A DNA stretch of 63,090 bases, the filler included. It is 7 parts of 7 records of this genome, joined end to end, with 100 filler letters (N's around TTAATTAATTAA, not from the genome) between each part and the next. Parts side by side here need not be neighbours in the genome. Positions count along the whole stretch, not along the records: positions 44,127 to 55,537 come from SRR31156797_31252; 6 more parts are not named here. One strand, written 5' to 3'. Shown piece after piece: positions 5,234-55,637 of the stretch. The first letter of the stretch is position 1. Each line of letters begins with the position of its first letter. The position numbers were made by a program, and so were the translations under genes. The notes under the pieces are model-generated. The model searched no databases and had not been told where the DNA came from. It was given only the letters and a program-made list of their open reading frames with translations.

Positions 5234-5333
5234 NNNNNNNNNNNNNNNNNNNNNNNNNNNNNNNNNNNNNNNNNNNNTTAATTAATTAANNNNNNNNNNN
5301 NNNNNNNNNNNNNNNNNNNNNNNNNNNNNNNNN
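5234..5333. other. Artificial contig linker
   Basis: 44 N + TTAATTAATTAA (stops in all frames) + 44 N, with an abrupt GC shift across it. Confidence 0.98.
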
Positions 5334-12643: not shown

Positions 12644-12743
12644 NNNNNNNNNNNNNNNNNNNNNNNNNNNNNNNNNNNNNNNNNNNNTTAATTAATTAAN
12701 NNNNNNNNNNNNNNNNNNNNNNNNNNNNNNNNNNNNNNNNNNN
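12644..12743. other. Artificial contig linker
   Basis: 44 N + TTAATTAATTAA + 44 N. Confidence 0.98.
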
Positions 12744-21849: not shown

Positions 21850-21949
21850 NNNNNNNNNNNNNNNNNNNNNNNNNNNNNNNNNNNNNNNNNNNNTTAATTA
21901 ATTAANNNNNNNNNNNNNNNNNNNNNNNNNNNNNNNNNNNNNNNNNNNN
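21850..21949. other. Artificial contig linker
   Basis: 44 N + TTAATTAATTAA + 44 N. Confidence 0.98.
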
Positions 21950-30200: not shown

Positions 30201-30300
30201 NNNNNNNNNNNNNNNNNNNNNNNNNNNNNNNNNNNNNNNNNNNNTTAATTAATTAANNNNNNNNNNNNNNNNNNNNNNNNNNNNNNNNNNNNNNNNNNNN
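30201..30300. other. Artificial contig linker
   Basis: 44 N + TTAATTAATTAA + 44 N. Confidence 0.98.
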
Positions 30301-38190: not shown

Positions 38191-38985
38191 ATGGACGGTA
38201 TCGTATTTGATATCAAACGATATGCTGTGCACGATGGACCAGGGATTCGCACGACAATCTTTCTGAAAGGATGTCCATTGAGATGCATCTGGTGTCACAA
38301 TCCTGAAAGCTTTTCTGCAAAAGTGGAAGAGTTTGAATTGCCTGAACAATTGGGCGATGTAAGTTTGATGAGGAAGAAACAAATTGGTCAAACCTACAGC
38401 AAACAGGAGCTAATAAAGGAAATTGAAAAGGACATTCTGTTTTTCGATGAGTCGGAAGGGGGAGTTACCTTTTCGGGTGGTGAACCATTGATGCAAATTG
38501 ATTTTCTAGAAGAAATGCTTAAGGAGTGCAAGGCAAAAGACATTCACACAGTTGTGGATACTTCTGGTTTAGCACCATTGGATCATCTGAAAAGAATCAT
38601 CGATAATGTTGATTTGTTCTTGTTCGATGTAAAGCACATGAAGGATGAAGAACACAAGAAGCTAACCGGTGTTTCCAACAAGCAGATTCTTGAAAATCTC
38701 GATCATTTAATGCAATTGCAGCAGTCTCTCATTATCCGTTATCCAATGATTCCGGATTGTAATGATTCAAATGACAATATCAATCAAATGATTAACTTCC
38801 TTCAACAGTACAGTTGGAAACCTGAAGTTCACATTTTACCTTATCACAGAATTGGAAAGGATAAGTATGATCGATTCAACAAAGAGAATCACATGCTGGA
38901 TATTCCATCTTTAAAAGAAGAAGATTGTGAATGGGCAAAAGCCCAATTTGAACAAGAAGGTTTCAAAATCTGCATTGGAGGGTAA
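38191..38985 (+). CDS. Glycyl-radical enzyme activating protein (radical SAM)
   Basis: HDGPGIRTTIFLKGCPLRCIWCHNPES, GGVTFSGGEP and LPYH..G. Confidence 0.95.
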   Translation: MDGIVFDIKRYAVHDGPGIRTTIFLKGCPLRCIWCHNPESFSAKVEEFELPEQLGDVSLMRKKQIGQTYSKQELIKEIEKDILFFDESEGGVTFSGGEPLMQIDFLEEMLKECKAKDIHTVVDTSGLAPLDHLKRIIDNVDLFLFDVKHMKDEEHKKLTGVSNKQILENLDHLMQLQQSLIIRYPMIPDCNDSNDNINQMINFLQQYSWKPEVHILPYHRIGKDKYDRFNKENHMLDIPSLKEEDCEWAKAQFEQEGFKICIGG

Positions 38986-39077
38986 ATCAATTATTAATTA
39001 ACAATGAGTAATTATTAATTAATCTTGAGAATAGAGGAATCTAAAATCTCTGATCTCATATCTAGTATCTAAAGAAA

Positions 39078-41441
39078 ATGAACAATAGAATAAAGCAATT
39101 ACGCGAGCAGAGTTTAAATGCCATTAACAGTATTTCTCACGAGAGAGCTTTGTTGATGACTGAATTTTATAAATCGGATGAAGCACAAATGGTATCTACG
39201 CCAGTAAAGCGAGCTTTGTCTTTTAAATACATATTTGCCAATAAATCCATTTGTATCAACGAGAATGAATTGATTGTTGGTGAACGTGGACCCGCACCAA
39301 AATCATGTCCGACTTATCCTGAGATTTGTATTCACTCTTTGGAGGATTTACAAATTCTGAACGACAGACCTAAGGTTTCGTTTAGGGTGGAGCAGGACAC
39401 GGTTGAGGTGTACAGAGATACCATTATTCCGTTCTGGAAAGGAAAAACAAATCGCGATCGCTTGATCAATAACATGACCGATGAGTGGTTGAATGCTTAT
39501 GGTGCTGGTGTCTTTACAGAATTTCAGGAGCAAAGAGCACCGGGACATACTGTGTTGGGGAAGAAAATGTTCCAACGTGGCTTCCTTGAAGTGAAAGAAG
39601 AAGTGCGACAGGCGATAGAGGCATTGGATTTCTTTGCAGATCCTTTGGCATATGAGAAACAAGAGGAGTTGAAAGCCATGGAAATTGTTTGCGACGGAAT
39701 TATTCTGTTTGCAGAACGCCATGCCGATGAATTGGAGCGTTTGGCTACAAAAGAAAAGGATGACAAACGTAAAGCAGAGTTGGAACAAATGGCAGCGGTC
39801 TGTCGCAGAGTTCCTGCACATGCACCTGAAACGATGCACGAAGCCTTACAGCATTACTGGTTCATTCATCTGGGTGTGATTACAGAGTTAAATCCATGGG
39901 ATTCCTTTAATCCGGGAAGATTAGACCAGCACTTGTTGCCATTTTACGAAAAGGAAGTGTTGGGGGGAACATTGCCAAAAGAGGACATGTATGAATTGTT
40001 GCATGCCTTTTGGATCAAGTTCAACAACCACCCGGCACCACCAAAAATGGGGGTGACAGCCAAAGAGAGCAATACCTACACCGATTTCTGTTTGATCAAT
40101 ATGGGTGGTGTAAAAGAAGATGGATCGGATGCGGTGAACGAAATGTCCTATGTCTTGTTGGACGTGATTGAAGAGATGAGATTGCTTCAGCCAAGTTCGA
40201 TGGTGCAAGTGAGCAAGAAGAATCCGGATCGCTTTATCAAGCGCACTCTAAAGATTTTGAAAACAGGATTTGGACAGCCATCCATATTCAATACCGATGC
40301 GGTTGTACAGGAAATGCTTCGACAAGGAAAGAGCATTGAAGATGCACGTAATGGAGGATGTAGCGGATGTGTTGAAACAGGAGCTTTTGGAACGGAAAAC
40401 TATTCCTTGAGTGGCTATTTCAACTTGGCGAAGATTCTGGAATTGACCTTAAATAATGGATTTGATCCAAGAACGAAAAAGCAGATTGGTTTACAAACCG
40501 GAAATGTATCCGATTTTAAATCGTATGAAGATGTATTTGCGGCATGGCAAAAGCAGGTGCAGTACTTTGCAGATATCAAGATCAGGGGAAACAATGTAAT
40601 TGAGAAACTGTATGCCAACTACCTGCCAGTACCATTCCTTTCGGTATTGGTTGACGATTGTATCTCGAAAGGGAGAGATTACAATGCAGGTGGCGCAAGA
40701 TACAATACCAGCTATGTGCAAGGAGTTGGATTGGGAAGTTTGGCAGATATGCTAAGTGCCATTAAATTACATGTGTTCGAGAAAGAAAAGCTTTCTTTGG
40801 CAGAATTGAAGTATGCCATGGATCAGAACTTTGAAGGGTACAATGAGTTGAGATCGGATTTGGTATACAACACGCCAAAATATGGAAATGATAATGACTA
40901 TGCAGATGATGAGGCTGTAGCTATTTTCGAGACATTCTACTCGGCAGTAAATGGTCGTCCTTCGGCAAAAGGGGGAGTATTCCGCATAAACATGTTGCCA
41001 ACCACCTGTCACGTGTATTTTGGAAATGTAATGGGCGCGTCAGCAGATGGACGTTTGGCAGAAAAACCACTATCGGAAGGGATTTCTCCTTTCCAGGGAG
41101 CAGACACCAAAGGACCGACTGCAGTGGTAAAATCAGCTTCGAAGATTGATCATTTGAGAACAGGAGGAACGTTATTGAATCAGAAGTTTAGTCCTTCTTT
41201 TATGGCGAACGATGCAGGAATAGAACAGGTAACGAAATTGGTGCGTTCTTATTTCCGTATGGACGGACATCACATTCAGTTTAATGTGGTAAGTGTGGAT
41301 ACCTTGAAAGATGCACAAAAGAATCCAGAGAACTATAAGGATTTAATCGTTCGAGTTGCCGGATACAGTGATTACTTTAATGATCTGGGTGAAGACCTGC
41401 AGAACGAGATCATCGAACGAAACGAACATACGGGTTTCTAA
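39078..41441 (+). CDS. hypD: trans-4-hydroxy-L-proline dehydratase (glycyl radical enzyme)
   Basis: EQRAPGHTV, ELNPWDSF, KESNTYTDF, SGCVETG, LSGYF, MLPTTCH and RVAGYS include the HypD-type His/Asp/Ser/Asp-Phe/Cys-x-Glu/Tyr/Thr active-site set. Confidence 0.88.
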   Translation: MNNRIKQLREQSLNAINSISHERALLMTEFYKSDEAQMVSTPVKRALSFKYIFANKSICINENELIVGERGPAPKSCPTYPEICIHSLEDLQILNDRPKVSFRVEQDTVEVYRDTIIPFWKGKTNRDRLINNMTDEWLNAYGAGVFTEFQEQRAPGHTVLGKKMFQRGFLEVKEEVRQAIEALDFFADPLAYEKQEELKAMEIVCDGIILFAERHADELERLATKEKDDKRKAELEQMAAVCRRVPAHAPETMHEALQHYWFIHLGVITELNPWDSFNPGRLDQHLLPFYEKEVLGGTLPKEDMYELLHAFWIKFNNHPAPPKMGVTAKESNTYTDFCLINMGGVKEDGSDAVNEMSYVLLDVIEEMRLLQPSSMVQVSKKNPDRFIKRTLKILKTGFGQPSIFNTDAVVQEMLRQGKSIEDARNGGCSGCVETGAFGTENYSLSGYFNLAKILELTLNNGFDPRTKKQIGLQTGNVSDFKSYEDVFAAWQKQVQYFADIKIRGNNVIEKLYANYLPVPFLSVLVDDCISKGRDYNAGGARYNTSYVQGVGLGSLADMLSAIKLHVFEKEKLSLAELKYAMDQNFEGYNELRSDLVYNTPKYGNDNDYADDEAVAIFETFYSAVNGRPSAKGGVFRINMLPTTCHVYFGNVMGASADGRLAEKPLSEGISPFQGADTKGPTAVVKSASKIDHLRTGGTLLNQKFSPSFMANDAGIEQVTKLVRSYFRMDGHHIQFNVVSVDTLKDAQKNPENYKDLIVRVAGYSDYFNDLGEDLQNEIIERNEHTGF

Positions 41442-44026: not shown

Positions 44027-44126
44027 NNNNNNNNNNNNNNNNNNNNNNNNNNNNNNNNNNNNNNNNNNNNTTAATTAATTAANNNNNNNNNNNNNNNNNN
44101 NNNNNNNNNNNNNNNNNNNNNNNNNN
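44027..44126. other. Artificial contig linker
   Basis: 44 N + TTAATTAATTAA + 44 N. Confidence 0.98.
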
Positions 44127-44976
44127 CTGCAAAAATCTTTAATCCATCTTCTTCAATAATATTAGCCGAGGTTGGTGGAGTATATGTACCATAGACCTTT
44201 AAATCGTGAATACGAACGGTTTGAATAGCTCCTGCAGGGGGAACGACACATGCGAAACGAAGCATAACCTTTTGGTCGTACACATCTACTCTGTCTGCCC
44301 ATGTCATACCATATCCTGACGGATCACATCGATACCCATTGGTAGTTTTAATTCCAAATACATCCTTGGTAAAACTATATCCCCATAATTCACCTGGTTG
44401 GTAACGAAGGGTATCCCAGGTAACACCTTCGTCTAGAGAAATTTCGCATAACACTCCCCGTTTTCCGCCACCGGTACTGGAATGTGTCCATTGTATCATT
44501 TCAACAGCCTCTAACTCACGAAGGTCCACAACCATACTACCGGCTAATGTAGGAATTGTAGAGTAAGTAGTATCAAAACGACTTATTTCAACAAAACCAT
44601 TACTAACATTATCCGTTTGAGCACCATCTCTGTAACCGTAAGATGTAGCCCACTCGGGAGCAAAAGCACATTGGGTGAAATAGTACTTAATTTTACCGGT
44701 TGGATTCTCATATACCGATACTTCAACTGTATCATTTTTATAACCAGGAATAATTGTAACCCCATCATTATCCAGAACATGTTCACTATTCCCTTCATTA
44801 GGATTATCATCCGAATGAAAAAACTCAAAACCCGTGAAATCCTCATTTAACATCAAGTCGGTAGTAGGATCCATCTCGCTCCAATTAACTCCTGTCCCCA
44901 AATTCATCTGCCCATATACAGAAAAAGTTACGCCTGTAATCAGGCAAATCATTAAAGTAAAAATTTTTGCTTTCAT
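44127..44976 (-). CDS. Secreted hypothetical protein (probably T9SS cargo), 3'-truncated
   Basis: Signal peptide; beta-rich domain ending IHDLKVYG; then PPTSA...LKIF, which resembles the start of a T9SS CTD. Confidence 0.6.
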
Positions 44977-45024
44977 AGTATTAATTTTTAATTAGTATTG
45001 AAATAGTATCTACGTAATATTCTT

Positions 45025-46593
45025 CTATGCGTTATTATTATTCTCTTTTTTCAATTTTGCCCAACCATAATATGTCAGGCTTTCATCAACCGGCTTTTCT
45101 TTAAAAATAAAACTTGATACAAAGCCCACCATCATTAAAACAAGATGACTGTACACTCCAATCATGTATTTATGATGCGTAAAATTCAAATTTCCTAAAT
45201 CGAGCAATAATGTCTTATCTTCTCCTGCACCTATTGGTGTTGAAGACAACAAGGCATAAATTGTAAACAAAATACTGGCAATAATTCCGGCATAAATGGC
45301 CTTTTTATTCACTCTTTTACTAAAAATTCCTAAAAGGAACATTCCTGCTATTCCGCCGGAAAAAATGGCATATAGTGTAAAAATAATTCCAAGAACTCCT
45401 TTCCCTCCTGCAGCAACATACGACAGCGCCACCCCAATAGCTACTACTCCTGCCAAAACCGTAAAAATCCGGCTCAAACGTAATTGTTTTGCTTCTGGTG
45501 TATTCGGTCTCCACCTCAGGTAGTAATCTTCCAGGCATATAGCTGACAGGCAATTCAGGTCAGAATCCAGGCTGGAAAAAGCGGCTGCAATCAATGCCGA
45601 AAGAATAAGACCGACAACTCCAACAGGGAGTTTAGTCATTATAAAAAATGGAAATACTTTATCTGCAATAATATCGGAAGGAAGACCTCCCATAATATGA
45701 TAGTAAGCAAAAAGTGCTGTACCAATAAACATAAACAAAGCCCAAACCGGAACACTCAACAACACACCAATCAATGAAGCTTTTACTGCTTCCTTATCTG
45801 ATTTTGCAGTTAAATATCGTTGTACAATGGTTTGATCGGTTCCGTACTTTTGAATGGCATAAAACACTCCGTTAAGCGCCATTACCCAAAAAGTTAAATT
45901 GACAAATTCAAGATCAAAAGGCCCAAAACCTATGCGTCCGTTTTCCATAGCCGTGTCCCAAATGGCGGCCGGACCTCCTTCAACAGAAAACAAAAGAATT
46001 CCTAGCGAAATAAGCCCTCCAAATATCAATAAAAATCCCTGAATCACGTCCAGCCATATTACTGCTTCAATTCCTCCGATCATAGTAATGGCAACTACGA
46101 TTACACCAATTACCAGGATAATATATACCGTATTAACTCCTGTCATTTCGGTTAGTGCCAATGAGATGATATAAAATACAGTTCCCATTTTAGCAAAATG
46201 ATTGAGCACAAATCCTAAAGAAGCGTATAAACGTGCTGCAAAACCAAAACGACGTTCAAAGTATTCATAAGCACTTAGTCTTATCACCCTTCGGAAAAGT
46301 GGAACAATTACACCAACGATAAAAACCAGCACAATTGGCACCATAAGCCCCTGTACCAAACGAATCCAGTTTGTGGCATATCCCTCGCCCGGATAAGCAA
46401 GAAATGTTACACTACTGATTAAAGTTGCCAATATGGACATGCCAATTGCCCATGACGGTATTTTCCCACTGGCTTTAAAATAATTGCCGGTATCTTTTTG
46501 GCGTTTGGAAAAACGCAAACCCACTAAAATAGTAATAGCAAATGTCGCTATAATTATGATCCAGTCAATTATATGTACAGAAGTAGAATTCAT
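45025..46593 (-). CDS. Sodium:solute symporter (SiaT/sialic-acid-like branch)
   Basis: WAIGMSILATLISSVTFLAYPG, SAYEYFERRF, GGIEAVIWLDVIQ and TDQTIVQRYL. Confidence 0.9.
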   Translation of the reverse strand: MNSTSVHIIDWIIIIATFAITILVGLRFSKRQKDTGNYFKASGKIPSWAIGMSILATLISSVTFLAYPGEGYATNWIRLVQGLMVPIVLVFIVGVIVPLFRRVIRLSAYEYFERRFGFAARLYASLGFVLNHFAKMGTVFYIISLALTEMTGVNTVYIILVIGVIVVAITMIGGIEAVIWLDVIQGFLLIFGGLISLGILLFSVEGGPAAIWDTAMENGRIGFGPFDLEFVNLTFWVMALNGVFYAIQKYGTDQTIVQRYLTAKSDKEAVKASLIGVLLSVPVWALFMFIGTALFAYYHIMGGLPSDIIADKVFPFFIMTKLPVGVVGLILSALIAAAFSSLDSDLNCLSAICLEDYYLRWRPNTPEAKQLRLSRIFTVLAGVVAIGVALSYVAAGGKGVLGIIFTLYAIFSGGIAGMFLLGIFSKRVNKKAIYAGIIASILFTIYALLSSTPIGAGEDKTLLLDLGNLNFTHHKYMIGVYSHLVLMMVGFVSSFIFKEKPVDESLTYYGWAKLKKENNNNA

Positions 46594-47774
46594 TATAGTT
46601 TATTGGTTATTCTTTCATGCTTATTTGACAGCATAATATTTTCGGGCCAGGGATAACTACCTGGTTTAGTCGTTAAAATAAGTCCCGGACATTCTTGCGC
46701 AGTCATCTGAATTATTCCTTGTAGAACCAACTTGTTCGGAAAAAGCTTGCTAATGCCAATGGCTTTTAATATTTCTGAAGTAGTTGCACCACCTTCAATT
46801 AATAAATCGCTAAGCCTGATTTTCTGAGCAACCTGCTTTACAACTTCTCCAATATTTTTGCGAATGTGCTCTGCAATGTCCGGATCTTTACTATAATCCT
46901 GAGCCACAGTAACAATTACGTTCTTTCTCTTTTTCAAATTTTCAACGATTTTCATTGCCCAATCGTTAAGCATTTGAAAACTAAGATCCGGGTTCTCATA
47001 TATCTCATCGGGCATGTTCATCCTTACAGTATCCTTTTCGTCAAGCCCCATTGGTAGTTTATCTGATTTTGGATACTTACTGCCAAAAATAAACAAGGCA
47101 TACTCTCCCAACTCAAGGTTCCCTTCGAAGCTTGGCTGTACTACGTTGTAAATTTTACTCATTAGCACATCGAAAAAGCCAGCTCCTCCTGCAACAACAG
47201 TACCCTCATCAATCTTTCTTGCCCATTCATCCATGTCTTCCTGGCTCTTAACATCACCAACAATAATCCCTTCCTCCGGAATTTCATCATTTGCTGAGAA
47301 AGATCCAATTTCAATATCATCCGATTTTATTATATCGGTTACAACCGAGGATTGAACCGGAAAATCGGGATCGTTCGCAAACGAAGTTTCTGCCAAAGGA
47401 ATTCCATTTATGGAATAATTACCGTGCTCAATTATCCGACCAAAAGATGGATTTCCGGCAACCATAATAGCCCGTTTTTTTCCGGTAACATCTAGCTGTG
47501 CTTTAATTTCAACAGCTATATTACCTCTTAATACAGAGTCGAGCTTTTTAAAAATATATTTTGGGTTCTGTTTAAGCAACTTTTTTGTAATCTTTTCAAT
47601 TTCTTTATAAGCATCAGCTTCGTTAAGCGTTCTTGTATCAGCCGCAATAATCATCAGGTCGGTTTCTTCAACTCTTTTCACCTGAGTCTCAATTACCACC
47701 TTCAATCCATACTTTAATCCAACCCCACCTATCTCTGCCGCACCAGTAAAATCATCTGCAATTACTGCAATCAT
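46593..47774 (-). CDS. Four-carbon acid sugar kinase (DUF1537; DtnK/DenK-like)
   Basis: IADDFTGA, FKKLDSVLRGN, EGGAT and TKPGS. Confidence 0.9.
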   Translation of the reverse strand: MIAVIADDFTGAAEIGGVGLKYGLKVVIETQVKRVEETDLMIIAADTRTLNEADAYKEIEKITKKLLKQNPKYIFKKLDSVLRGNIAVEIKAQLDVTGKKRAIMVAGNPSFGRIIEHGNYSINGIPLAETSFANDPDFPVQSSVVTDIIKSDDIEIGSFSANDEIPEEGIIVGDVKSQEDMDEWARKIDEGTVVAGGAGFFDVLMSKIYNVVQPSFEGNLELGEYALFIFGSKYPKSDKLPMGLDEKDTVRMNMPDEIYENPDLSFQMLNDWAMKIVENLKKRKNVIVTVAQDYSKDPDIAEHIRKNIGEVVKQVAQKIRLSDLLIEGGATTSEILKAIGISKLFPNKLVLQGIIQMTAQECPGLILTTKPGSYPWPENIMLSNKHERITNKL

Positions 47775-47786
47775 CTCAATTTTTTG

Positions 47787-48815
47787 TTAGTTGTCAATTG
47801 TTAGCTTTACTGCATACTCAATAGCATACAGCAGTGCATCCGGGCTGGCAATACCTTTGCCTGCAATCTCGAATGCGGTTCCATGATCGACTGAAGTTCG
47901 TATTATCGGCAATCCTAACGTAATATTCACACCTTTTACGCTTTTCATCTTTTTTGTTTCTTCATCCCACTCAAATCCAACCAGTTTAAAAGGAATGTGC
48001 CCCTGATCATGGTACATGGCCACACACCCGTCGAATCGTCCTCCCGCTGCCAATGCAAACAGTGTATCAGGAGGTACCGGCCCGGTTACATCCAGTCCGT
48101 TATTTTTGGCTTCTTCAACTGCCGGACTTATTTCTTTTATTTCTTCATCTCCAAATAAACCATCATCTCCTGAATGTGGATTTAATCCTGCAACACCTAT
48201 CCTTGGAGATTTGATTCCCAATTTCTTTAAACCTTTATCAAGAATATCAATCACCTCCAATATCCTTTCTTTCTTTGCTAAATCACAAGCTTGCCGTAGC
48301 GACACATGCGTGCTAACATGAATTACTTTTATCTTTTCATCGGCAAGCAACATGGCATACTTTGAAGTATTGGTATAATGAGCATATATTTCGGTATGTC
48401 CTGAAAAATGATGTCCGGCTTCGTTAATAGCCTTTTTATTGATCGGATTAGTAACGGTACCGTCAACTTCTCCATTTTTTGCCAGTTCAATTGCTTTAAT
48501 CACCGAATGAAACGCAAGGTTTCCTGCCTGAGCGTTTACTTTACCAAATTCAATTGGATCAGTGCTTACCCCAATATCCAGAAGATCGATTGTACCATTT
48601 CGGAATAAAGCTTCTGAAATTTTGTCGATAACATTTAATGACAAGTTTTTATCACTAAATTCAATTGCACGATTCATTATACTGGCACTTCCAATTAAAA
48701 CCGGGTTACACACATCGTATACTTCAGGGTTAGCGAAAGCCTTCACTGCTATTTCCGGTCCTATTCCTGCCGGATCACCCATCGTTATTGCCAATATTGG
48801 TTTCTTTTCTGCCAT
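47787..48815 (-). CDS. pdxA: PdxA-family dehydrogenase, probably PdxA2 (4-phospho-threonate/erythronate dehydrogenase)
   Basis: TMGDPAGIGPE, GHTE, GLNPH, AMYHDQGHIP and RTSVDHGTAF; adjacent to a DUF1537 kinase. Confidence 0.9.
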   Translation of the reverse strand: MAEKKPILAITMGDPAGIGPEIAVKAFANPEVYDVCNPVLIGSASIMNRAIEFSDKNLSLNVIDKISEALFRNGTIDLLDIGVSTDPIEFGKVNAQAGNLAFHSVIKAIELAKNGEVDGTVTNPINKKAINEAGHHFSGHTEIYAHYTNTSKYAMLLADEKIKVIHVSTHVSLRQACDLAKKERILEVIDILDKGLKKLGIKSPRIGVAGLNPHSGDDGLFGDEEIKEISPAVEEAKNNGLDVTGPVPPDTLFALAAGGRFDGCVAMYHDQGHIPFKLVGFEWDEETKKMKSVKGVNITLGLPIIRTSVDHGTAFEIAGKGIASPDALLYAIEYAVKLTIDN

Positions 48816-48819
48816 TGTT

Positions 48820-49734
48820 TTAAAATGCAGGATTTAATATTTTATCTTCCATTTGTGTTAAATAAGCCTTTTCTTCTTCTAATCCCATACGCTGCATTGG
48901 GGGCATAACGTCAAGCCCACACAATCCTTTTATCGACATCAATGCTTTTAATGCAGGAATAGCTTCTGTTACAGTTCTTCCTTGTTGATTGTATTTGGAA
49001 AGTTCGTTTGTTAGTACTTGTAGTTGATCGCAAACTTTCCAGTCTTTTTGTTTAGCAGCACTATATAAATCAGCATACAATTCAGGAAACAAATTTCCGA
49101 GACTTGGAACAATACCGTCGGCTCCATTTTTTAGTCCCAGACTAGAGTTTGCCGCACAACCAACCAAAAACAAGAAATCATCACGCTTAGCCCACCTGTC
49201 AAGAGATTCACTTAATCGATCCTGATCTGGCTGAGAATCTTTTATACCGATGATATTTGTATGATGACTCATTTTCTCAATTACATCAAGCGATATAGAA
49301 TGATGGGTGGTTGCTGGAATATTGTATAAAAAAACGGGCAACGGCAGTTCATCTGCAAGCTTTTCAAACCAATTAAGTGCATGAGAATCGTTTGCAGGAT
49401 AGTAATTCGGAGCTAATGCAACCAACGCATCTACTCCTAAATCTGCGTATTTTTCACCTTCTTCAATCAGAGATGGTAATGCATTCCCACACAATCCTGC
49501 AACTATTGGCATTTTACCATTTGCTTCTGTTACTGCAACCTTTGCAAGTTTCTCTTTTTGCGATGTAGATAACGAAGCCACTTCCCCAGTAGTTCCCAGT
49601 ACCAATGGCTGAACCTTATTCTCCACAAACGATGATATTATTTTTTTCACCGCACCTTCATCAATGGTTAACTCCTCTGTTAATGGAGTAACCATTGGCA
49701 CCACCACTCCTCTGTATTTATTTAAATCCTTCAT
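48820..49734 (-). CDS. DHDPS/NAL-family class I aldolase/lyase
   Basis: VPMVTP, LGTTGE, LYNIP and Schiff-base GIKDS. Confidence 0.9.
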   Translation of the reverse strand: MKDLNKYRGVVVPMVTPLTEELTIDEGAVKKIISSFVENKVQPLVLGTTGEVASLSTSQKEKLAKVAVTEANGKMPIVAGLCGNALPSLIEEGEKYADLGVDALVALAPNYYPANDSHALNWFEKLADELPLPVFLYNIPATTHHSISLDVIEKMSHHTNIIGIKDSQPDQDRLSESLDRWAKRDDFLFLVGCAANSSLGLKNGADGIVPSLGNLFPELYADLYSAAKQKDWKVCDQLQVLTNELSKYNQQGRTVTEAIPALKALMSIKGLCGLDVMPPMQRMGLEEEKAYLTQMEDKILNPAF

Positions 49735-49736
49735 TA

Positions 49737-50885
49737 TTAATATGCTTTCCTGTATATATCAATGGCATCCTGCAATTCTACTTTCCGAACATTATTTTTT
49801 AATAACCTTTGAATTTTTATTGCTGAATTTGCCATTTCCTCAATATGTTTTTCTTCCAGTTTTAATTCCGAAAGGCGACCAGGAATTTTAAAATATGTAA
49901 TCAAATCGCGAATTAACTGAATCCCCTGCAATGCAACTGATTTATTGTCATCATTAGATTCATCTCCAATAGCCCTGGCAACTTTTGCATATTTCTCAAC
50001 AGCATATTCAAGATTATACTCTAAGATAAAAGGTAATAACATAGCATTTGAAACACCATGCGAGATCTTAAATGTACTTCCAAGCGGATAAGCAAGTGCG
50101 TGTACAGCTCCAGTATTAACCGGCCCCAGACACATTCCGCCATACATACTTCCCAATGCCACTTTTTCCCGGGCTACAACATCATCCCCCTTATCAAAAG
50201 CCTGCTTCAAATTTCTTCCTATTAGACGAATACCTTCCAGTGCTAAAAGATCATTAATAGGGTTTGAAAAATTATTAACATAGGCTTCGATGCAATGCGT
50301 TAAAGCATCCAATCCGGTTGCTGCTGTAACAGAAGGAGGCACACCTATTGTCAATAAAGGATCAACGTAAGTTGCATCCGGAACCAGCTGCGGATCAATT
50401 ACCCCAACCTTTCCCCCTGTTTCAGGGTCAAAAAAGATCGCATTGGGCGAAACTTCACTTCCTGTTCCTGCTGTTGTAGGCAAACAAATCATTTTTTTGC
50501 CACGCGAAAGTTTTTTCACTCCTTTCAAAACATCTCTTACATCAATACTACTACCGGCCGTAGCGGCAAGCAATTTTGCTGTATCCAACACACTTCCACC
50601 ACCAATTCCAACTATACAATCCGGGTTAAAACCATTAACCTGCAAAAGTATGTTTTGGTAATCGGTAAAGGAAGGTTCTTGTTTTATCTCCTTATTTACG
50701 ATTATTTCGCAACCTGATTCCTGAATACGATTAATTTCTTCACCGATCTGCCCCATCACTTCATCAATCGCCAACACAAAAATACGCTGACAACCACTAC
50801 TAATAACGTCTTCCACAAAAGTTGAAAAACAATTATTCCCAAAAACAAGTTTCGCCGGATTATATATCGAGATGCTTAAGTTCAT
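49737..50885 (-). CDS. Iron-containing alcohol dehydrogenase family
   Basis: GIGGGSVLDTAK, PTTAGTGSEV, DALTHCIE, VHALAY and HGVSN. Confidence 0.93.
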   Translation of the reverse strand: MNLSISIYNPAKLVFGNNCFSTFVEDVISSGCQRIFVLAIDEVMGQIGEEINRIQESGCEIIVNKEIKQEPSFTDYQNILLQVNGFNPDCIVGIGGGSVLDTAKLLAATAGSSIDVRDVLKGVKKLSRGKKMICLPTTAGTGSEVSPNAIFFDPETGGKVGVIDPQLVPDATYVDPLLTIGVPPSVTAATGLDALTHCIEAYVNNFSNPINDLLALEGIRLIGRNLKQAFDKGDDVVAREKVALGSMYGGMCLGPVNTGAVHALAYPLGSTFKISHGVSNAMLLPFILEYNLEYAVEKYAKVARAIGDESNDDNKSVALQGIQLIRDLITYFKIPGRLSELKLEEKHIEEMANSAIKIQRLLKNNVRKVELQDAIDIYRKAY

Positions 50886-50955
50886 TCTTCTCCTTTAGTA
50901 TTTACTGGTTGAATTTACTTCAGATTGTAAAAATAGGAAAAATAATGCAAAAAAG

Positions 50956-51036
50956 TGTAATCGTTTACATTATTTATTTTCTCTATTAATAAAGTGTTTA
51001 AACAAAAAAAAAACTCACAGGATGTAAACGTTTTTC
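50956..51036. promoter_or_regulatory. LacI-type operators upstream of the catabolic genes
   Basis: TGTAATCGTTTACA (50956-50969) and TGTAAACGTTTTTC (51023-51036). Confidence 0.75.
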
Positions 51037-51105
51037 TTTATTTTAAAAACACGCAACAGTAGGGCTTTTTTAACTACAACGCAACATAACAACAGCCCTT
51101 ATCAC

Positions 51106-51141
51106 AAAAAAAAGGTGAAGCTAAATGCTTCACCTTTTTTT
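51106..51141 (-). terminator. Intrinsic terminator
   Basis: AAAAAAAAGGTGAAGC-TAAAT-GCTTCACCTTTTTTT. Confidence 0.85.
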
Positions 51142-51157
51142 CAACTGGAATCTTATT

Positions 51158-54100
51158 TTATTTTACAATATTCAATTTTCCATTATATCTCTCATCACCA
51201 ACTTTAAGCATGTAAATGTACATTCCTCTATTAAGATCCTGTAGATTTACACCTATTTCGTGAGTTCCACCGGTATAAACCTGAGGGGTGGTAATTTTAA
51301 CTTGCTGTCCAAGCATGTTATATAACGAAAGACTAACTTCTTCCATGTCATTCAATGTAAACCTCACCTTAGCTTGATTTACAGCAGGATTAGGATAAAC
51401 CAACACCTCTTTATCCAACTCAATTGCTGTAGCCGAAGTAATTGGACCAGCTCCTAACACCCATTCCAATGAACGCTCAACAAGCAAATTGAAATCAGCA
51501 GTTGCTGCATCTAATCCTTTTGCATTTGCAGCAAATATTACAATTCGGTGATCATTTGTTTGGCCACTTGCCCCTAAAGTAGAACCTTCAGGAACAGCCC
51601 ACATCATAGGTGCAGTAATTTCTGCGTTGGTATTCTGACCAAGTGCAATAGCAGCTGGTAAATCAGTAGCCAATGCAAGCCCCCAGGCATAAATATCACC
51701 ACTAGGATCGGCTGTTGACAATGACACAACCTGATCAATATCAAGATCTTCCGTAATATAATGCGAATTATTAAGAATCTTCATATCCATATTCTCAACA
51801 GCTGTTCTGCTTTCCTGAAAATTAGTATCATCAGTTAACCATCCCCATTTATTACTTTTCACACCAAATCCTTCCATTGACACCAATGGGATAGGATAAT
51901 TATCATCTTTACCAAACGGAACAACTTTACTCGAGCTTGCTGATTCACCTACAATAAGTGCCTCGTATGGAGAATAGTCATACCCAGCCACACCTATATC
52001 ATTGTCATCAACATATTTTACGTTGTAACCGGCATTGGTTAAATAGTCAACCAATAAGGAATCGCTCATTTCCATTGCTTCCGGGGTACCAGCACCTGCG
52101 TATAACAAGTAAACTGTTGTATCTTCGTAAACCCAACGAGGATCACCAATACCCTTATTTGCATTTGATTCGCTGGCAAAGTTGAAGTTGCCCATTGCAG
52201 GATCAATCCAAAGTTCGTAAGAACTTTCTTCGAATGTGTTTGTGGGCATACCAGGAATAGTATCGCTTGAGAAAGAAAAATCGCTGGTAGCGTAAACATT
52301 TTTAATAGTGAAAGAAGTACTACCTAAACCATCATAACCTTTTATGCCATAAATAGTGTCACCTGCCATATTCCAACCATGACCAAATAATGATTTTTCG
52401 ATTTTTAAGCCACCCCAGATATTATCAGCTCCATCTTCACGATATCTGATTAACTGGCGCCCCTTTTCAGGAGCAGAAAAGAAAGTACATTTTTCAATAG
52501 TCATAGAGCTTGAATTACCTTTGCTAACGATAAAATAAACAAAATGAGAAAAAGTAGACTTTGTAATTGTGATATTATTAACTGCTCCTCCTGCTTTATC
52601 CATGGTCAATAAGCCGTAATTATTAATGCTATCCATTACACAATCGGTTACAATAAAGTTCTCAATTGTTGAAGGATCATTTTTTATCCTGGTTATACCT
52701 CTTAACGACTTAGCAGTACACGACTCAAGAACAAAATCCTGAATAGCACTTTGTGAACTAATATTAATAACATAATCTCCATCGAACTCACCTGAGAAAT
52801 GAATATTTGAGAAAGCAACATATGCTACATCTGCATTTTCAACCATATCGAAATTCGAATCACAGAAAATATGAGGTTTTTCACTTGCAGACGGATCACT
52901 GCTTTCGAACTTAACTGACTTGTCAATTTTATGCCCACCAATATTATACATTTTTCCAGGTGCCAGTATAATTGAAGAACTATCTGGTACATTACCCAAT
53001 GTATCTGCCAGGCTATAACCATCTTCTTCTCCTGTTAAATCAATAATATTAGAGCCTTCACCTTGCACATAAAGCTGATAGAATACACGAACGCCAGCAT
53101 CAATCTCCATATTTGAATAATACGTCGCAGCCTGTGGCATTACCTTTAAATAAAACATCAGGTCATCATCAGTAGCAGATTCAGGAGCTGCTATCACAAT
53201 TTTCTGTTTTGACCATTCCATTGTTCCTGCATCCAAAACAGCTGGAGTATGAGTATAAGGCACCTCAACAGTGTAGTTACCATTTCCATCATTTGCCATA
53301 ATAGCTAATGTATCTGGAAAAGTCAGCATCTTATTCATCTTATCTCCTTTACCGTTTATATAAAGATTATCTTCAATCTTTAATTCAGCAACACGGCCTT
53401 TAATCTTTAATGGAATACCAATTAAAGTTTCTTCTCCAATTTTCCCAACATAAGGACTGTCAGAATTAGCATAAGTACCACCGTCCAAGCCCATATCTGG
53501 CTCAATCCAAACTGGAGCAGCAAATGTTACTGTAAAATCATCAAAAACAATGGTTGGATCATAACTACCTTCTGCAATTGGAGTTCCTGTACCATCTGTA
53601 TCAAAATACAAATGCAACTCACTGTCTCCATCAAATTCTGAGATATCTACTCCTAGTGTCTCTGCAAGTTTTACTTGCTTTAAGCCACTTCCCGAAACAT
53701 AAAAATCTGTTATAGTTGTATCAATCCCATTTTTGCCTTTAACCCTTAAATCGTAACTAGCCGTTGAACCTGTGTTACCTTCATCGTATGTATCAATGGA
53801 AAACTCAAGATCAGAGGTCAAAACCATATTTTTAAAGGTGAAGACAATTTCATGCTGCAACTTTTTATAAATTCCAGGATGAGCACCATATGCCTGGTTG
53901 GTAGGGTCACCACCTACATCAAAAACACAGGCAGAATAATTATTAAGTGTGTTTTTAGCCGAATCTTCAGTACCGGCATAAACCTCTTCCCATTTTGCCA
54001 ACAATCCTTGCAAAGAATCGATACTGGCAACATGGTTTGGATTCTCATTGCTACGCCATCTGTTAGCACGCACTTTAAAATCATCATTTGGATTAACAGT

Positions 54101-54394
54101 AGGGGCATTTGCTGTATCGGCAGCCCATACAGTAACAGCAAAACCTTTGTTTGTTCTTGCTTTCCCCCAAGAAAACTCGACAGTAGAATCATTAACTTGT
54201 GTCCATGTACTGGTAGCCTGGTCGGTATTAAAGTCAATCGTTAAAGTGGCTGACTGCGTTTCGGCATCTTTTACATACGTTTGCCCAATTGACGAATAGT
54301 CGCTAAGTTTTACCTGAGCGTTCGAAAAGCCTGCAACAAATAAGAAGCAAGCCATAATTAAAAACTTAAAGTAATTTTTCTTCATAGGTATCAT
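51158..54394 (-). CDS. Large T9SS-secreted multidomain protein with a DUF4957/DUF5123-like beta-helix
   Basis: Signal peptide; beta-helix-like repeats ending GIGDPRW; C-terminal VYPNP...LYNMLGQ...GMYIY...KLNIVK sorting domain. Confidence 0.75.
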   Translation of the reverse strand: MIPMKKNYFKFLIMACFLFVAGFSNAQVKLSDYSSIGQTYVKDAETQSATLTIDFNTDQATSTWTQVNDSTVEFSWGKARTNKGFAVTVWAADTANAPTVNPNDDFKVRANRWRSNENPNHVASIDSLQGLLAKWEEVYAGTEDSAKNTLNNYSACVFDVGGDPTNQAYGAHPGIYKKLQHEIVFTFKNMVLTSDLEFSIDTYDEGNTGSTASYDLRVKGKNGIDTTITDFYVSGSGLKQVKLAETLGVDISEFDGDSELHLYFDTDGTGTPIAEGSYDPTIVFDDFTVTFAAPVWIEPDMGLDGGTYANSDSPYVGKIGEETLIGIPLKIKGRVAELKIEDNLYINGKGDKMNKMLTFPDTLAIMANDGNGNYTVEVPYTHTPAVLDAGTMEWSKQKIVIAAPESATDDDLMFYLKVMPQAATYYSNMEIDAGVRVFYQLYVQGEGSNIIDLTGEEDGYSLADTLGNVPDSSSIILAPGKMYNIGGHKIDKSVKFESSDPSASEKPHIFCDSNFDMVENADVAYVAFSNIHFSGEFDGDYVINISSQSAIQDFVLESCTAKSLRGITRIKNDPSTIENFIVTDCVMDSINNYGLLTMDKAGGAVNNITITKSTFSHFVYFIVSKGNSSSMTIEKCTFFSAPEKGRQLIRYREDGADNIWGGLKIEKSLFGHGWNMAGDTIYGIKGYDGLGSTSFTIKNVYATSDFSFSSDTIPGMPTNTFEESSYELWIDPAMGNFNFASESNANKGIGDPRWVYEDTTVYLLYAGAGTPEAMEMSDSLLVDYLTNAGYNVKYVDDNDIGVAGYDYSPYEALIVGESASSSKVVPFGKDDNYPIPLVSMEGFGVKSNKWGWLTDDTNFQESRTAVENMDMKILNNSHYITEDLDIDQVVSLSTADPSGDIYAWGLALATDLPAAIALGQNTNAEITAPMMWAVPEGSTLGASGQTNDHRIVIFAANAKGLDAATADFNLLVERSLEWVLGAGPITSATAIELDKEVLVYPNPAVNQAKVRFTLNDMEEVSLSLYNMLGQQVKITTPQVYTGGTHEIGVNLQDLNRGMYIYMLKVGDERYNGKLNIVK

Positions 54395-54442
54395 TTTTAG
54401 TTTGACATAAATTGAATTATTTATTTAGTATCTTTCTTTATC

Positions 54443-54521
54443 GTCTATCGTTTACACTCTCATCATCCTAACTAACTGACAGATACAACTGCCTTTTTCT
54501 GCCATTATGTAAACGTTTACA
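54443..54521. promoter_or_regulatory. LacI-type operators upstream of the T9SS gene
   Basis: Perfect palindrome TGTAAACGTTTACA (54508-54521) and GTCTATCGTTTACA (54443-54456). Confidence 0.78.
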
Positions 54522-54564
54522 CTCTTCGATCTAATCAAAGCAGAACCAATCTCCTTCTTTAAAA

Positions 54565-55537
54565 TTACGCTGAACTTCGTTTCATCAATTCAGCATTAAG
54601 CATCATCTGGATACTTGAGCGCTCTGGTTCATTTACTCTCTGAATTAACAATTCACCAGCTCTTCTTCCAATCTCTCTTGCTGGTTGACGCACCGCTGTT
54701 AATGGCGGATTAAGAGAACTCGCCCAATGCATATCGTCAAAACCTACGATTGCAACATCATTCGGAATATGCAATTTGCGCGTATGTATCATTTCAAGTG
54801 CACCTAAGGTTATCAGGTTATTTCCCGTAAAAATTGCATCGGGAGGTTCAGGTAAGTCCAACAACTCACCACAAAGTTTTACACCGCTTGGCAATTTTGA
54901 ATCACCAAATTTTATTAAATCCTCATCAATTGTTAATCCATTTTCAATTAGTGCCCGTCGATATCCCTGTTCGCGATACTTTGTTGAAGGAATTGAAGGC
55001 AGACCAGAAATTATGGCTATTCGTTTATAACCATGTTTCGCCAAATAATCAACGGCGTTAAATGCACTTTCTTCATTATTAATCAGCACCACATCAACAT
55101 CCGTATTACTCAACCCCCTGTCAACACAAACTACGGGCAATCCCTCCTTAACCATATTTTTCAACATCAGGTCGTCTTCGCTGGCGGGTGCTGCAATAAG
55201 TCCATCAATACCCTCTGATTGAAGAATTTCAAGATAAAGTTTTTCTTTCTTCTCGTCCTGACTAAAATTACACATTATAAGTGCGTAATTATTATTATAC
55301 GCTACTTCTTCAATGCCTTCAAGTACATCTACATAAAACGGGTTTTGAATATCGGGAATAAGCACGCCAAGTAAATTGCCGGAAATACTTTTTGATCGTA
55401 ACCGCTTTGCAACCCTACTCGGTTGATACTTTAATTCTTTGATTGCTTTTAGAATACGTGCCCGGGTAGCTTCGTTAACTTTGCCATTATTATTTAGCAC
55501 ACGTGATACCGTTGCAATTGATACTCCGGCTCGTTTT
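54565..55537 (-). CDS. LacI family regulator, 5'-truncated
   Basis: KRAGVSIATVSRVLN HTH at the contig edge; NPFY, IPNDVAIVGFDD and PPLTAVRQP. Confidence 0.93.
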
Positions 55538-55637
55538 NNNNNNNNNNNNNNNNNNNNNNNNNNNNNNNNNNNNNNNNNNNNTTAATTAATTAANNNNNNN
55601 NNNNNNNNNNNNNNNNNNNNNNNNNNNNNNNNNNNNN
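55538..55637. other. Artificial contig linker
   Basis: 44 N + TTAATTAATTAA + 44 N. Confidence 0.98.

Follow-up and report, generated by a model that had tools for sequence, protein, structure and literature searches.

A 63-kb window of DNA (63,090 nucleotides, the whole stretch that we analysed) carries a five-gene operon encoding an iron-containing alcohol dehydrogenase (ADH), an aldolase of the DHDPS/NAL family, a PdxA paralog, a DUF1537 acid-sugar kinase and a sodium:solute symporter (SSS) that resembles the sialic acid transporter SiaT. We conclude that this cassette is probably a LacI-controlled catabolic route for Dha (3-deoxy-D-lyxo-heptulosarate), a 2-keto-3-deoxy C7 diacid. The observations behind this conclusion are the gene families and their intact catalytic motifs, the conservation of the cassette, its linkage to rhamnogalacturonan-II (RG-II) loci and to the hydrolase family GH143, and an operator that the operon has in common with a neighbouring gene. 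Every substrate assignment in the cassette is one that we infer.

We propose that GH143-type exo-hydrolases would release Dha from RG-II or other Dha-bearing glycans, and that free Dha would be imported by the SiaT-like symporter. The aldolase would form a Schiff base at C2 and cleave the C3–C4 bond to give pyruvate and D-threuronate, whose aldehyde the ADH would reduce with NAD(P)H to D-threonate. The DUF1537 kinase would phosphorylate this to 4-phospho-D-threonate, and the PdxA2-like enzyme would oxidise C3 and decarboxylate the product to dihydroxyacetone phosphate (DHAP) and CO2, regenerating NAD(P)H. The net reaction, Dha + ATP -> pyruvate + DHAP + CO2 + ADP, would be redox-neutral. The original prediction, made from the sequence alone, had also read the five genes as one route for Dha via D-threonate. 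That reading has strong contextual support in the linkage to GH143 and RG-II loci, in the stereochemistry, and in the nearness of two of the proteins to PdxA2 and SiaT.

The cassette is conserved well beyond the window. Our related loci come from an alignment query against species genomes, which matched 600 stretches and confirmed 542 of them as relatives; we used the best 80. A query with the single aldolase gave only Clostridia matches of 27–28% identity (L001–L007), which are left out of all counts. Gene presence was scored by tblastn with the window proteins, and genes were called collinear if they lay on one strand within 8 kb. The aldolase, PdxA and kinase genes occur together in 70 of the 80 loci, all five genes occur in 55, and the order ADH > aldolase > PdxA > kinase > SSS is collinear in 50. 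This arrangement is not due to chance. The ADH gene is without a match in 13 of the 70 core cassettes, six of which are cut at the edge of the locus. Going by the titles of their records, most loci come from Chitinophagaceae, Sphingobacteriaceae, Cytophagales, Flavobacterium and Prolixibacteraceae, with others from Acidobacteriota, Pirellulales, Dadabacteria, Anaerohalosphaeraceae, Woeseiaceae and Hephaestia.

Most genomes with the cassette encode GH143. Co-occurrence with GH143, GH33 and RG-II loci had been set beforehand as a check on the original prediction, and among the relatives the outcome is strongly positive. The GH143 model PF24067 is matched in 61 of the 70 genomes with the three core genes, and in 68 of the 80 locus genomes. 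It passes its cut-off in 11 of 301 Bacteroidota genomes sampled evenly across the phylum to which one carrier belongs. For the 70 cassette genomes versus this sample, Fisher's p = 2e-48, which is a rough guide since relatedness is ignored. An ortholog of the kinase (E <= 1e-20) is present in 75 of the 80 genomes, 65 of which also have GH143. The two genes share a contig in 42 of these 65 genomes and lie on different contigs in the other 23; all 42 same-contig pairs fall within 44 kb, 30 of them within 20 kb and eight within 10 kb. The association extends to the sampled genomes themselves: PF07005 (DUF1537) is found in 10 of the 301, and eight of these 10 have GH143 (Fisher p = 5e-12), while the short DUF1537 type to which the window protein belongs (372–394 aa), told apart by length and score, is found in five, four of them with GH143 (p = 5e-6), with relatedness again ignored in both tests. 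A long DUF1537 type (444–533 aa) is also encoded near GH143 (locus L029, 20–3204; genomes G001, G067 and G255). In L029 the genes next to this kinase encode a RuBisCO-like protein and a member of the Asp/Glu racemase family, and the long type probably functions in apiose catabolism, in its apionate branch.

The linkage to GH143 bears on another explanation, in which the kinase and PdxA genes form a stand-alone operon for D-threonate or D-erythronate, derived for example from ascorbate or from sugar oxidation, and the aldolase and ADH are unrelated or detoxifying. A DUF1537 kinase and PdxA2 are reported to suffice on their own for D-threonate or D-erythronate (Zhang et al. 2016), and three loci (L020, L039 and L057) have the cassette and a LacI gene with no RG-II genes nearby, two of them in genomes without GH143. 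However, the genomic linkage to GH143 is very strong, and the transporter resembles a carrier of a C9 ulosonic acid, not a small-acid carrier. Moreover, the order of the five genes is kept in those 50 loci with gaps of a few bases, which argues for one pathway. We therefore regard a stand-alone tetronate operon as improbable.

What surrounds the cassette in other genomes? Open reading frames (ORFs) neighbouring the 80 loci were clustered by BLAST (>=28% identity, >=60% coverage), and one representative of each cluster was scanned with Pfam. The most frequent neighbours are GH78 rhamnosidases (28 loci), a 738-aa protein with a xylose-isomerase-like barrel (27), GH2 (21), GH141 (18) and BNR_2 sialidase-like proteins (16), followed by GFO/IDH/MocA oxidoreductases (15), SusC (13), DUF3826 (12) and, in 10 loci, PF24067, the BT_1020-like propeller that forms the GH143 Dha hydrolase domain. 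GH140 apiosidases and GH28 are each found in five loci, and GH95, GH106, BT_3657-like GH43 and RhaT in a few loci each. These neighbour families are those of the RG-II system of Bacteroides thetaiotaomicron. In that system, according to PMC13501991, the N-terminus of BT1020 is a GH143 Dha hydrolase and its C-terminus is GH142, BT1013 combines GH78 with a C-terminal Kdo (3-deoxy-D-manno-octulosonate) hydrolase, and BT1012 is GH140. The protein with the xylose-isomerase-like TIM barrel, ~735 aa long and unannotated in its N-terminal half, is encoded 3ʹ of the cassette in those 27 loci (e.g. L045, 14554–16770; L092, 1876–4080). A 297-aa barrel protein and a GFO/IDH/MocA oxidoreductase are often encoded with it, and this module lies inside RG-II loci.

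The closest cultured relative is Maribellus sediminis, whose counterpart of a 1078-aa protein encoded next to the operon, with a type IX secretion system (T9SS) signal, is 66% identical. There, one strand reads LacI > T9SS > ADH > aldolase > PdxA > kinase > SSS > two small T9SS proteins > SusC > SusD > T9SS pectate-lyase-like protein. The locus continues with DUF3826, DUF6298, GH140, a BT_3657-like GH43 and a fused GH143-CBM-GH142-like protein, followed by BNR_2, a 734-aa isomerase-like protein and GH141, and then by a hybrid two-component regulator and another SusC/D pair. Judged by this relative, the window contig is most likely the start of an RG-II locus. The linkage of SusC/D, GH143, GH140, GH141, GH78 and GH33-like proteins that characterises such loci is seen in the relatives; the window contig itself spans only positions 44127–55537.

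A few loci are far more compact. In L063 (Acidobacteriota) and L081 (Saprospiraceae) the order is LacI > TonB-dependent receptor > sulfatase > ADH > aldolase > PdxA > kinase > SSS > GH143, continuing with a phosphoesterase or cupin protein and a LamG protein. GH143 is the sole recognised hydrolase family in these two loci, and neither has BNR_2. In these two, as in L021 (genome G318, contig 1, 1399425–1457353) and L027, the cassette is found with sulfatases, FAD-dependent oxidoreductases and as many as three GH143 proteins. The sulfatases, and the lack of RG-II enzymes in these loci, hint at a sulfated Dha-bearing glycan beyond plant RG-II.

Why should the substrate be Dha? Among the natural 2-keto-3-deoxy acids that we could think of, we know of none but the C7 diacid that gives pyruvate and a C4 uronate. 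In Dha, C4 is left, C5 left and C6 right (D-lyxo); cleavage between C3 and C4 gives D-threuronate, and reduction of its aldehyde gives D-threonate. The stereochemical argument of the original prediction thus holds when redone by hand. Other candidates were rejected on the nature of the fragment: DKI/DEH, the unsaturated uronate products, is a C6 acid that would leave a C3 aldehyde, keto-deoxy-glucarate would also leave a C3 product, DAH (3-deoxy-D-arabino-heptulosonate) a neutral tetrose, and Kdo a neutral pentose.

A second aldolase in many loci is informative here. Many Chitinophagaceae loci have the order GH78 > DUF3826 > BNR_2 > SSS > ALD1 > ADH > ALD2 > PdxA > kinase > SSS, in which the ALD1 and ALD2 aldolases form well-separated clades, ALD1 having NCSSE where ALD2 has GTTGE. 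The window enzyme belongs to ALD2, which is always accompanied by enzymes that handle a C4 acid. The BNR_2 > SSS > ALD1 module, whose symporter is also SiaT-like, occurs in at least 19 loci. It lies directly upstream of the cassette and beside GH78 in, for example, L037 (4818–8800), L049 and L086, and is a candidate for the release, uptake and cleavage of Kdo. The combination of BNR_2, symporter and lyase next to GH78 matches side chain C of RG-II (Rha-Kdo), so the module fits Kdo, and the module with the C4-acid enzymes would be left for Dha. Cleavage of Kdo yields neutral D-arabinose and needs no further acid-sugar enzymes.

These loci also frame the strongest competing explanation, which is that the cassette degrades another acidic component of RG-II or a related glycan (Kdo, aceric acid or some other ulosonic acid), or that a broad aldolase serves both Kdo and Dha, with the tetronate enzymes acting on part of the flux. 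The cassette does lie in multi-substrate RG-II loci, and in some of them (L044, L068, L084 and L047) BNR_2 stands directly before the ADH with no second aldolase. Reduction of aceric acid at C1 would give a 2-C-substituted tetronate, which the DUF1537/PdxA pair could conceivably process. However, aceric acid offers no 2-keto-3-deoxy acid to a pyruvate aldolase, and the D-arabinose from Kdo lacks a carboxylate on which a DUF1537 kinase or a PdxA-type beta-hydroxy-acid decarboxylase could act. In addition, a second ulosonic acid already has its own module in the ALD1 loci, and the compact loci have GH143 and no BNR_2. We consider another acid unlikely to be the substrate, and favour Dha.

ORF calling gives exactly the five contiguous genes that had been predicted, in a row on the minus strand at 45025–50885 with intergenic gaps of 2, 4, 12 and -1 nt, and Pfam agrees with the family predicted for each of them. 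Of the NCBIfam equivalog cut-offs, the operon proteins pass only those of TIGR00557 (pdxA) and the SSS superfamily model. The ADH has both Pfam halves of an iron-containing alcohol dehydrogenase, PF00465 (E 5e-36) and PF25137 (ADH_Fe_C; E 1e-53), together with the GGGS motif and the Asp and three His ligands of that family; the identities of the metal ligands we take from FucO. GGGS, the Asp and His of DALTH, and two later His are conserved across 52 orthologs. The protein lies below every NCBIfam equivalog cut-off, with ErcA (249 bits) and lactaldehyde reductase (239 bits) as top matches, and its nearest solved relatives are methanol dehydrogenase (8zrl), 1,3-propanediol oxidoreductase (3bfj) and the lactaldehyde enzyme FucO (1rrm).

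The aldolase (PF00701, DHDPS; E 5e-43) has the Schiff-base Lys, the proton-relay Tyr and the G-[ST]-T-G-E motif of the DHDPS/NAL class I superfamily. G47-T48-T49-G50-E51, Y137 and K165 are invariant among 26 homologs and among 67 ALD2 sequences, as are Y111 and Y112. We take K165 to be the Schiff-base Lys of strand 6, Y137 the proton-relay Tyr and GTTGE the pyruvate-carboxylate motif. Among 5860 candidates, 3520 are homologs at E <= 0.001, the best being 74% identical; named homologs come from Draconibacterium, Maribellus and Prolixibacteraceae. Two familiar identities were considered and rejected. The protein scores 153.4 against the DapA model TIGR00674 (cut-off 206.15), and Thr142, invariant in ALD2, occupies the position of the DapA Arg for aspartate semialdehyde, which we presume to lie five residues past the catalytic Tyr and have placed on the aldolase by this motif offset. 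Against the NanA models it scores 106.5 versus 281 (NF003164) and 82.6 versus 382 (TIGR00683). It is also under the cut-off for 2-keto-3-deoxygluconate (KDG) aldolase. Its best solved relative is 4xky (E 2e-35). As a separate observation, 4xky, deposited as dihydrodipicolinate synthase, has His and not Arg at the DapA substrate-Arg position in the alignment with the window aldolase; whether it is a true DapA may be worth re-examining.

The PdxA copy (PF04166, E 3e-108) keeps GHTE, HVSTH, NPH and HDQGH motifs that are conserved in 62 orthologs. The role in the route predicted for it, that of PdxA2, agrees with its nearest solved relatives: it scores 306 bits against 2hi1 ("HTP dehydrogenase 2") and 305 bits against 6e85 ("D-threonate 4-phosphate dehydrogenase"), compared with 198 and 192 bits for the PdxA1 structures 1ps6 and 1r8k. 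In each of the five relatives checked, another PdxA that scores higher in Pfam is encoded elsewhere in the genome. On its fold motifs, its nearness to PdxA2, the second copy in relatives and the adjacent DUF1537 gene (12 nt downstream), we class the window protein as PdxA2-like.

Might these instead be ordinary housekeeping genes, namely dapA, the vitamin-B6 pdxA and a generic alcohol dehydrogenase, or mis-grouped ones, that are merely adjacent? NCBI-style rules would name them so: the PdxA copy passes the general pdxA model TIGR00557 (354 vs 290), and DapA is the top NCBIfam match of the aldolase. However, the aldolase is under the DapA cut-off and lacks the DapA Arg, the relatives have their second, higher-scoring PdxA, DUF1537 is as rare in the sampled Bacteroidota as noted above, and the operon and the adjacent T9SS gene have a common operator and a sugar-type LacI regulator. 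We disfavour this explanation and regard it as very improbable.

The kinase has both DUF1537 domains, PF07005 (SBD_N; 131.9 bits, E 4e-38) and PF17042 (NBD_C; 35.8 bits, E 1.5e-8), and a DDxTG motif in which D7, D8 and G11 are invariant and T10 nearly so. It scores 60 bits against the 3-oxo-tetronate kinase (OtnK) model, which has a cut-off of 350. A profile search places it in a subfamily with at least 150 representatives of 50%-identity clusters at >=379 bits, all 352–421 aa long. The symporter matches PF00474 (SSF; E 3e-39) and TIGR00813 (230.8 bits vs a cut-off of 184). Its best solved relative is SiaT (5nv9, E 5.7e-77), in keeping with the label it had been given. It retains Ser60 and Thr63 of SiaT and has Lys at the position of Arg135, all three of which we take to be substrate residues in SiaT. 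R78 of the window protein is not conserved, and K249 and H483 are group-specific.

The operon appears to be under the control of a LacI-family regulator. A palindrome, TGTAAACG[A/T]TTACA, is found by script search upstream of the cassette in many related loci. There are exactly two copies of the motif in the 63-kb window, where 0.03 would be expected by chance: TGTAAACGATTACA before the ADH gene and the perfect operator TGTAAACGTTTACA before the gene for the 1078-aa T9SS protein, which is thus predicted to belong to the same regulon as the operon. In related loci with a LacI gene, the motif lies 28–154 nt before the ADH gene. Among related loci, 13 of the 15 with a LacI gene have a relaxed form of the operator, versus 5 of the 56 without; the operator is kept together with the regulator, as in a LacI-family regulon, to which the cassette is predicted to belong. 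The window regulator matches Pfam Peripla_BP_1/3/4 and only positions 20–46 of the LacI helix-turn-helix (HTH) model, and orthologs with 48–76% identity adjoin the cassette in related loci. A scan for sigma-70 promoters and terminators gave nothing above shuffled sequence, the sigma-70 method being ill-suited to Bacteroidota, and an Rfam scan of the window gave no match.

Two T9SS proteins flank the operon. The 1078-aa protein consists of an N-terminal beta-sandwich region, DUF4957, DUF5123, a ~230-aa repeatable domain and Por_Secre_tail. Only 23 homologs were found; L009 and L088 have it in the equivalent place, where L011 and L022 have the C-terminal end of a T9SS protein. For residues 1–450, the AlphaFold2 (AF2) model (pLDDT 88) matched nothing beyond pilins, adhesins and Ig-like domains, all at low TM (TMq <=0.35). 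The protein is probably a surface glycan-binding or adhesin-like one. The small T9SS protein has no Pfam match. Its family comprises 151 homologs of ~335–345 aa, most with PF18962, and its AF2 model (pLDDT 87.7) gives weak matches to the carbohydrate-binding modules (CBMs) CBM32, CBM22 and CBM4 and to the gingipain adhesin domain (TMq 0.27–0.35). It is a probable glycan-binding accessory. No catalytic fold was recognised in fold searches with the models of the two T9SS proteins.

Several observations weigh against the Dha route. With respect to the enzymes, the PdxA copy is below the cut-off of the D-threonate-4-phosphate dehydrogenase model NF002891 (354.9 vs 583 bits), and the top NCBIfam match of the kinase, the D-threonate kinase model NF047819, reaches 135.8 versus a cut-off of 450 over the N-terminal half only. 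A profile of the kinase scores 115, 105, 101, 75 and 69 bits against five solved DUF1537 proteins, none of which is clearly nearest. These kinase scores lower the claim that the enzyme is a DtnK, not the claim that it would phosphorylate a tetronate. Alignments of the aldolase and the symporter revealed no conserved basic residue obviously fit to hold the second carboxylate of Dha. Where DapA has its Arg, the aldolase has Thr, and at the SiaT Arg135 position, 55 symporters of the group have Lys in 26 cases, Gly in 26 and Arg in one. With respect to the genomes, ADH is absent from 7 of the 64 cassettes whose upstream side is covered. GH143 is missing from 9 of the 70 cassette genomes, some of them small metagenome-assembled genomes, and the GH143-negative set includes Hephaestia and two Cytophagales-type loci with stand-alone LacI cassettes; in some GH143-negative genomes another BNR_2-containing protein adjoins the cassette (L016 and L023). 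In Sphingobacteriaceae-type loci the BNR_2 protein directly before the ADH is Kdo-hydrolase-like, and there is no ALD1. Most cassettes sit in multi-substrate loci, and the choice of Dha over RG-II in general rests on chemical logic and a few compact loci. Lastly, the contig with the operon is cut off before a hydrolase could come into view.

The window is a mosaic: seven contigs follow one another, separated by six 100-bp spacers of identical sequence (44 N + TTAATTAATTAA + 44 N). The GC content of the pieces ranges from 29% to 59%. Adjacency of genes across a spacer carries no information, and the pieces may stem from more than one organism. The DPP4, HypD and ABC-transporter genes of the window are not neighbours of the operon because they lie on other contigs of this mosaic. 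The piece with the operon reads, in order, small T9SS, SSS, kinase, PdxA, aldolase, ADH, 1078-aa T9SS and LacI, and it is cut within the C-terminus of the first of these proteins and within the HTH of the last. Coordinates are given in Table 1.

Table 1. Features of the 63-kb window, with positions counted along the whole stretch.
Feature	Position	Strand	Description
Small T9SS cargo protein	44127–44976	-	C-terminus cut at contig end; CBM-like beta-sandwich
SiaT-like sodium:solute symporter	45025–46593	-	522 aa; putative Dha importer; start overlaps kinase stop by 1 nt
DUF1537 acid-sugar kinase, "short" subfamily	46593–47774	-	393 aa; putative D-threonate 4-kinase
PdxA paralog, PdxA2-like	47787–48815	-	342 aa; putative decarboxylating 4-phospho-D-threonate dehydrogenase (product DHAP + CO2)
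DHDPS/NAL-family class I pyruvate aldolase, ALD2 clade	48820–49734	-	304 aa; putative Dha aldolase (products pyruvate + D-threuronate)
Fe-ADH	49737–50885	-	382 aa; putative D-threuronate (C4 uronate) reductase (product D-threonate)
LacI-type operator palindrome	50956–50969		~70 nt upstream of ADH start (50885)
1078-aa T9SS-secreted protein	51158–54394	-	Predicted to be co-regulated with operon
Perfect second operator	54508–54521		Between LacI gene and 1078-aa T9SS gene
LacI-family regulator	54565–55537	-	Predicted repressor of operon and T9SS gene; N-terminal HTH cut at contig end
Spacers	5234–5333, 12644–12743, 21850–21949, 30201–30300, 44027–44126, 55538–55637

Two other pieces of the mosaic contain genes of separate interest. 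A glycyl-radical enzyme encoded at 38191–41441 on the plus strand is above the NCBIfam cut-off for trans-4-hydroxy-L-proline dehydratase (1281 vs 1100). An activase encoded upstream of it scores 309 bits, under its cut-off of 425, and a DPP-IV-type peptidase is encoded 3ʹ on the same piece. Together, by their sequences, these look like an anaerobic module for hydroxyproline or collagen peptides. On another piece, a 669-aa ORF at 17818–19827 on the minus strand fuses a class I/II aminotransferase to the ATPase domain of an ABC (ATP-binding cassette) transporter, and adjoins two permease genes and one binding-protein gene.

The original prediction had held that no pathway for Dha catabolism has been described, and our literature search likewise found no description of one at the level of title, abstract or passage, with subscription journals and supplements outside its scope. 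Nor did the literature yield a description of a Dha aldolase of the NAL family or a D-threuronate reductase of the Fe-ADH family. We consider the chances a little better than even that the cassette is the missing Dha route, adding these two activities and feeding a new D-threonate kinase subfamily and PdxA2, and that marine Bacteroidota, such as the source of this operon, couple it to T9SS binding proteins and some lineages to sulfatases and several GH143 proteins, where it may serve algal glycans (prasinophyte scales and thecae) besides plant RG-II.

What would be the significance of such a route? RG-II is present in the wall of every vascular plant, and its depolymerisation is known in detail; a Dha route would close one gap in the fate of its rare acid sugars, and would explain genes of some RG-II degraders that B. 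thetaiotaomicron is without. It would also correct the routine annotation of "DapA", "PdxA" and "alcohol dehydrogenase" in many genomes, and provide genome markers for cross-feeding on sugars of pectin and algal cell coverings in soil, gut and marine sediment. The aldolase could be of use for making C7 ulosonic diacids.

The cassette can be compared with several known systems. The RG-II utilisation loci of B. thetaiotaomicron, reportedly described by Ndeh et al. in 2017 and said to include BT1020 (GH143/GH142) and BT1013 (GH78/Kdo hydrolase), have the same hydrolase families that surround the cassette in related loci. The B. thetaiotaomicron genome, used as a control, has a PF24067 match and no PF07005 match, and this model RG-II degrader thus appears to lack the cassette. 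A preprint (bioRxiv 10.64898/2026.03.13.711244) reports, in its available part, that B. thetaiotaomicron secretes Kdo and that the pathways for several of the RG-II sugars it secretes are unconfirmed; that part mentions no aldolase.

Two systems resemble the lower half of the route. The "aldolase-DUF1537" cluster that serves L-threonate as well as D-erythronate, given in PMC10580937 as LtnD, OtnI, OtnK and OtnC, likewise uses a DUF1537 kinase in C4 acid-sugar catabolism that ends in DHAP. Unlike the cassette, it proceeds through a 3-oxo-tetronate and the class II aldolase-like decarboxylase OtnC, and has no PdxA. The D-threonate pathway has the same two families that are adjacent in the cassette operon, and the same predicted end products, DHAP and CO2. 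Zhang et al. (PNAS, 2016) are said to have assigned it to DtnK, a DUF1537 kinase, and PdxA2, a decarboxylating 4-phospho-D-threonate dehydrogenase. In contrast to that pathway, the cassette kinase and PdxA are below the equivalog cut-offs and the kinase is of a separate short subfamily, two additional enzymes are proposed to produce the tetronate intracellularly out of a C7 ulosonic diacid, and the transporter is SiaT-like and not a tetronate binding-protein system. DtnK and DenK are both named in PMC10971088.

Two further systems resemble the upper half. As in the glucarate/galactarate route, where GarL aldolase is followed by GarR tartronate-semialdehyde reductase and GarK glycerate kinase, a 2-keto-3-deoxy diacid would be split into pyruvate and an acid-aldehyde that is then reduced and phosphorylated. 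However, the Gar enzymes are an HpcH aldolase, a beta-hydroxyacid dehydrogenase and a glycerate kinase, acting on a C6 substrate to give a C3 product with no oxidative decarboxylation. The nan cluster, with its sialidase, SiaT or NanT, and NanA, offers a parallel in overall logic: an exo-hydrolase with a sialidase-like propeller (here GH143), a SiaT-like Na+ symporter and a NAL-family lyase would together process a 2-keto-3-deoxy ulosonic acid. In contrast to NanA, the cassette aldolase is below the NanA cut-offs and by motif lacks what we take to be the NanA-type Asp-Glu after beta-7, and its aldehyde product would be an acid, with three more enzymes required to process it.

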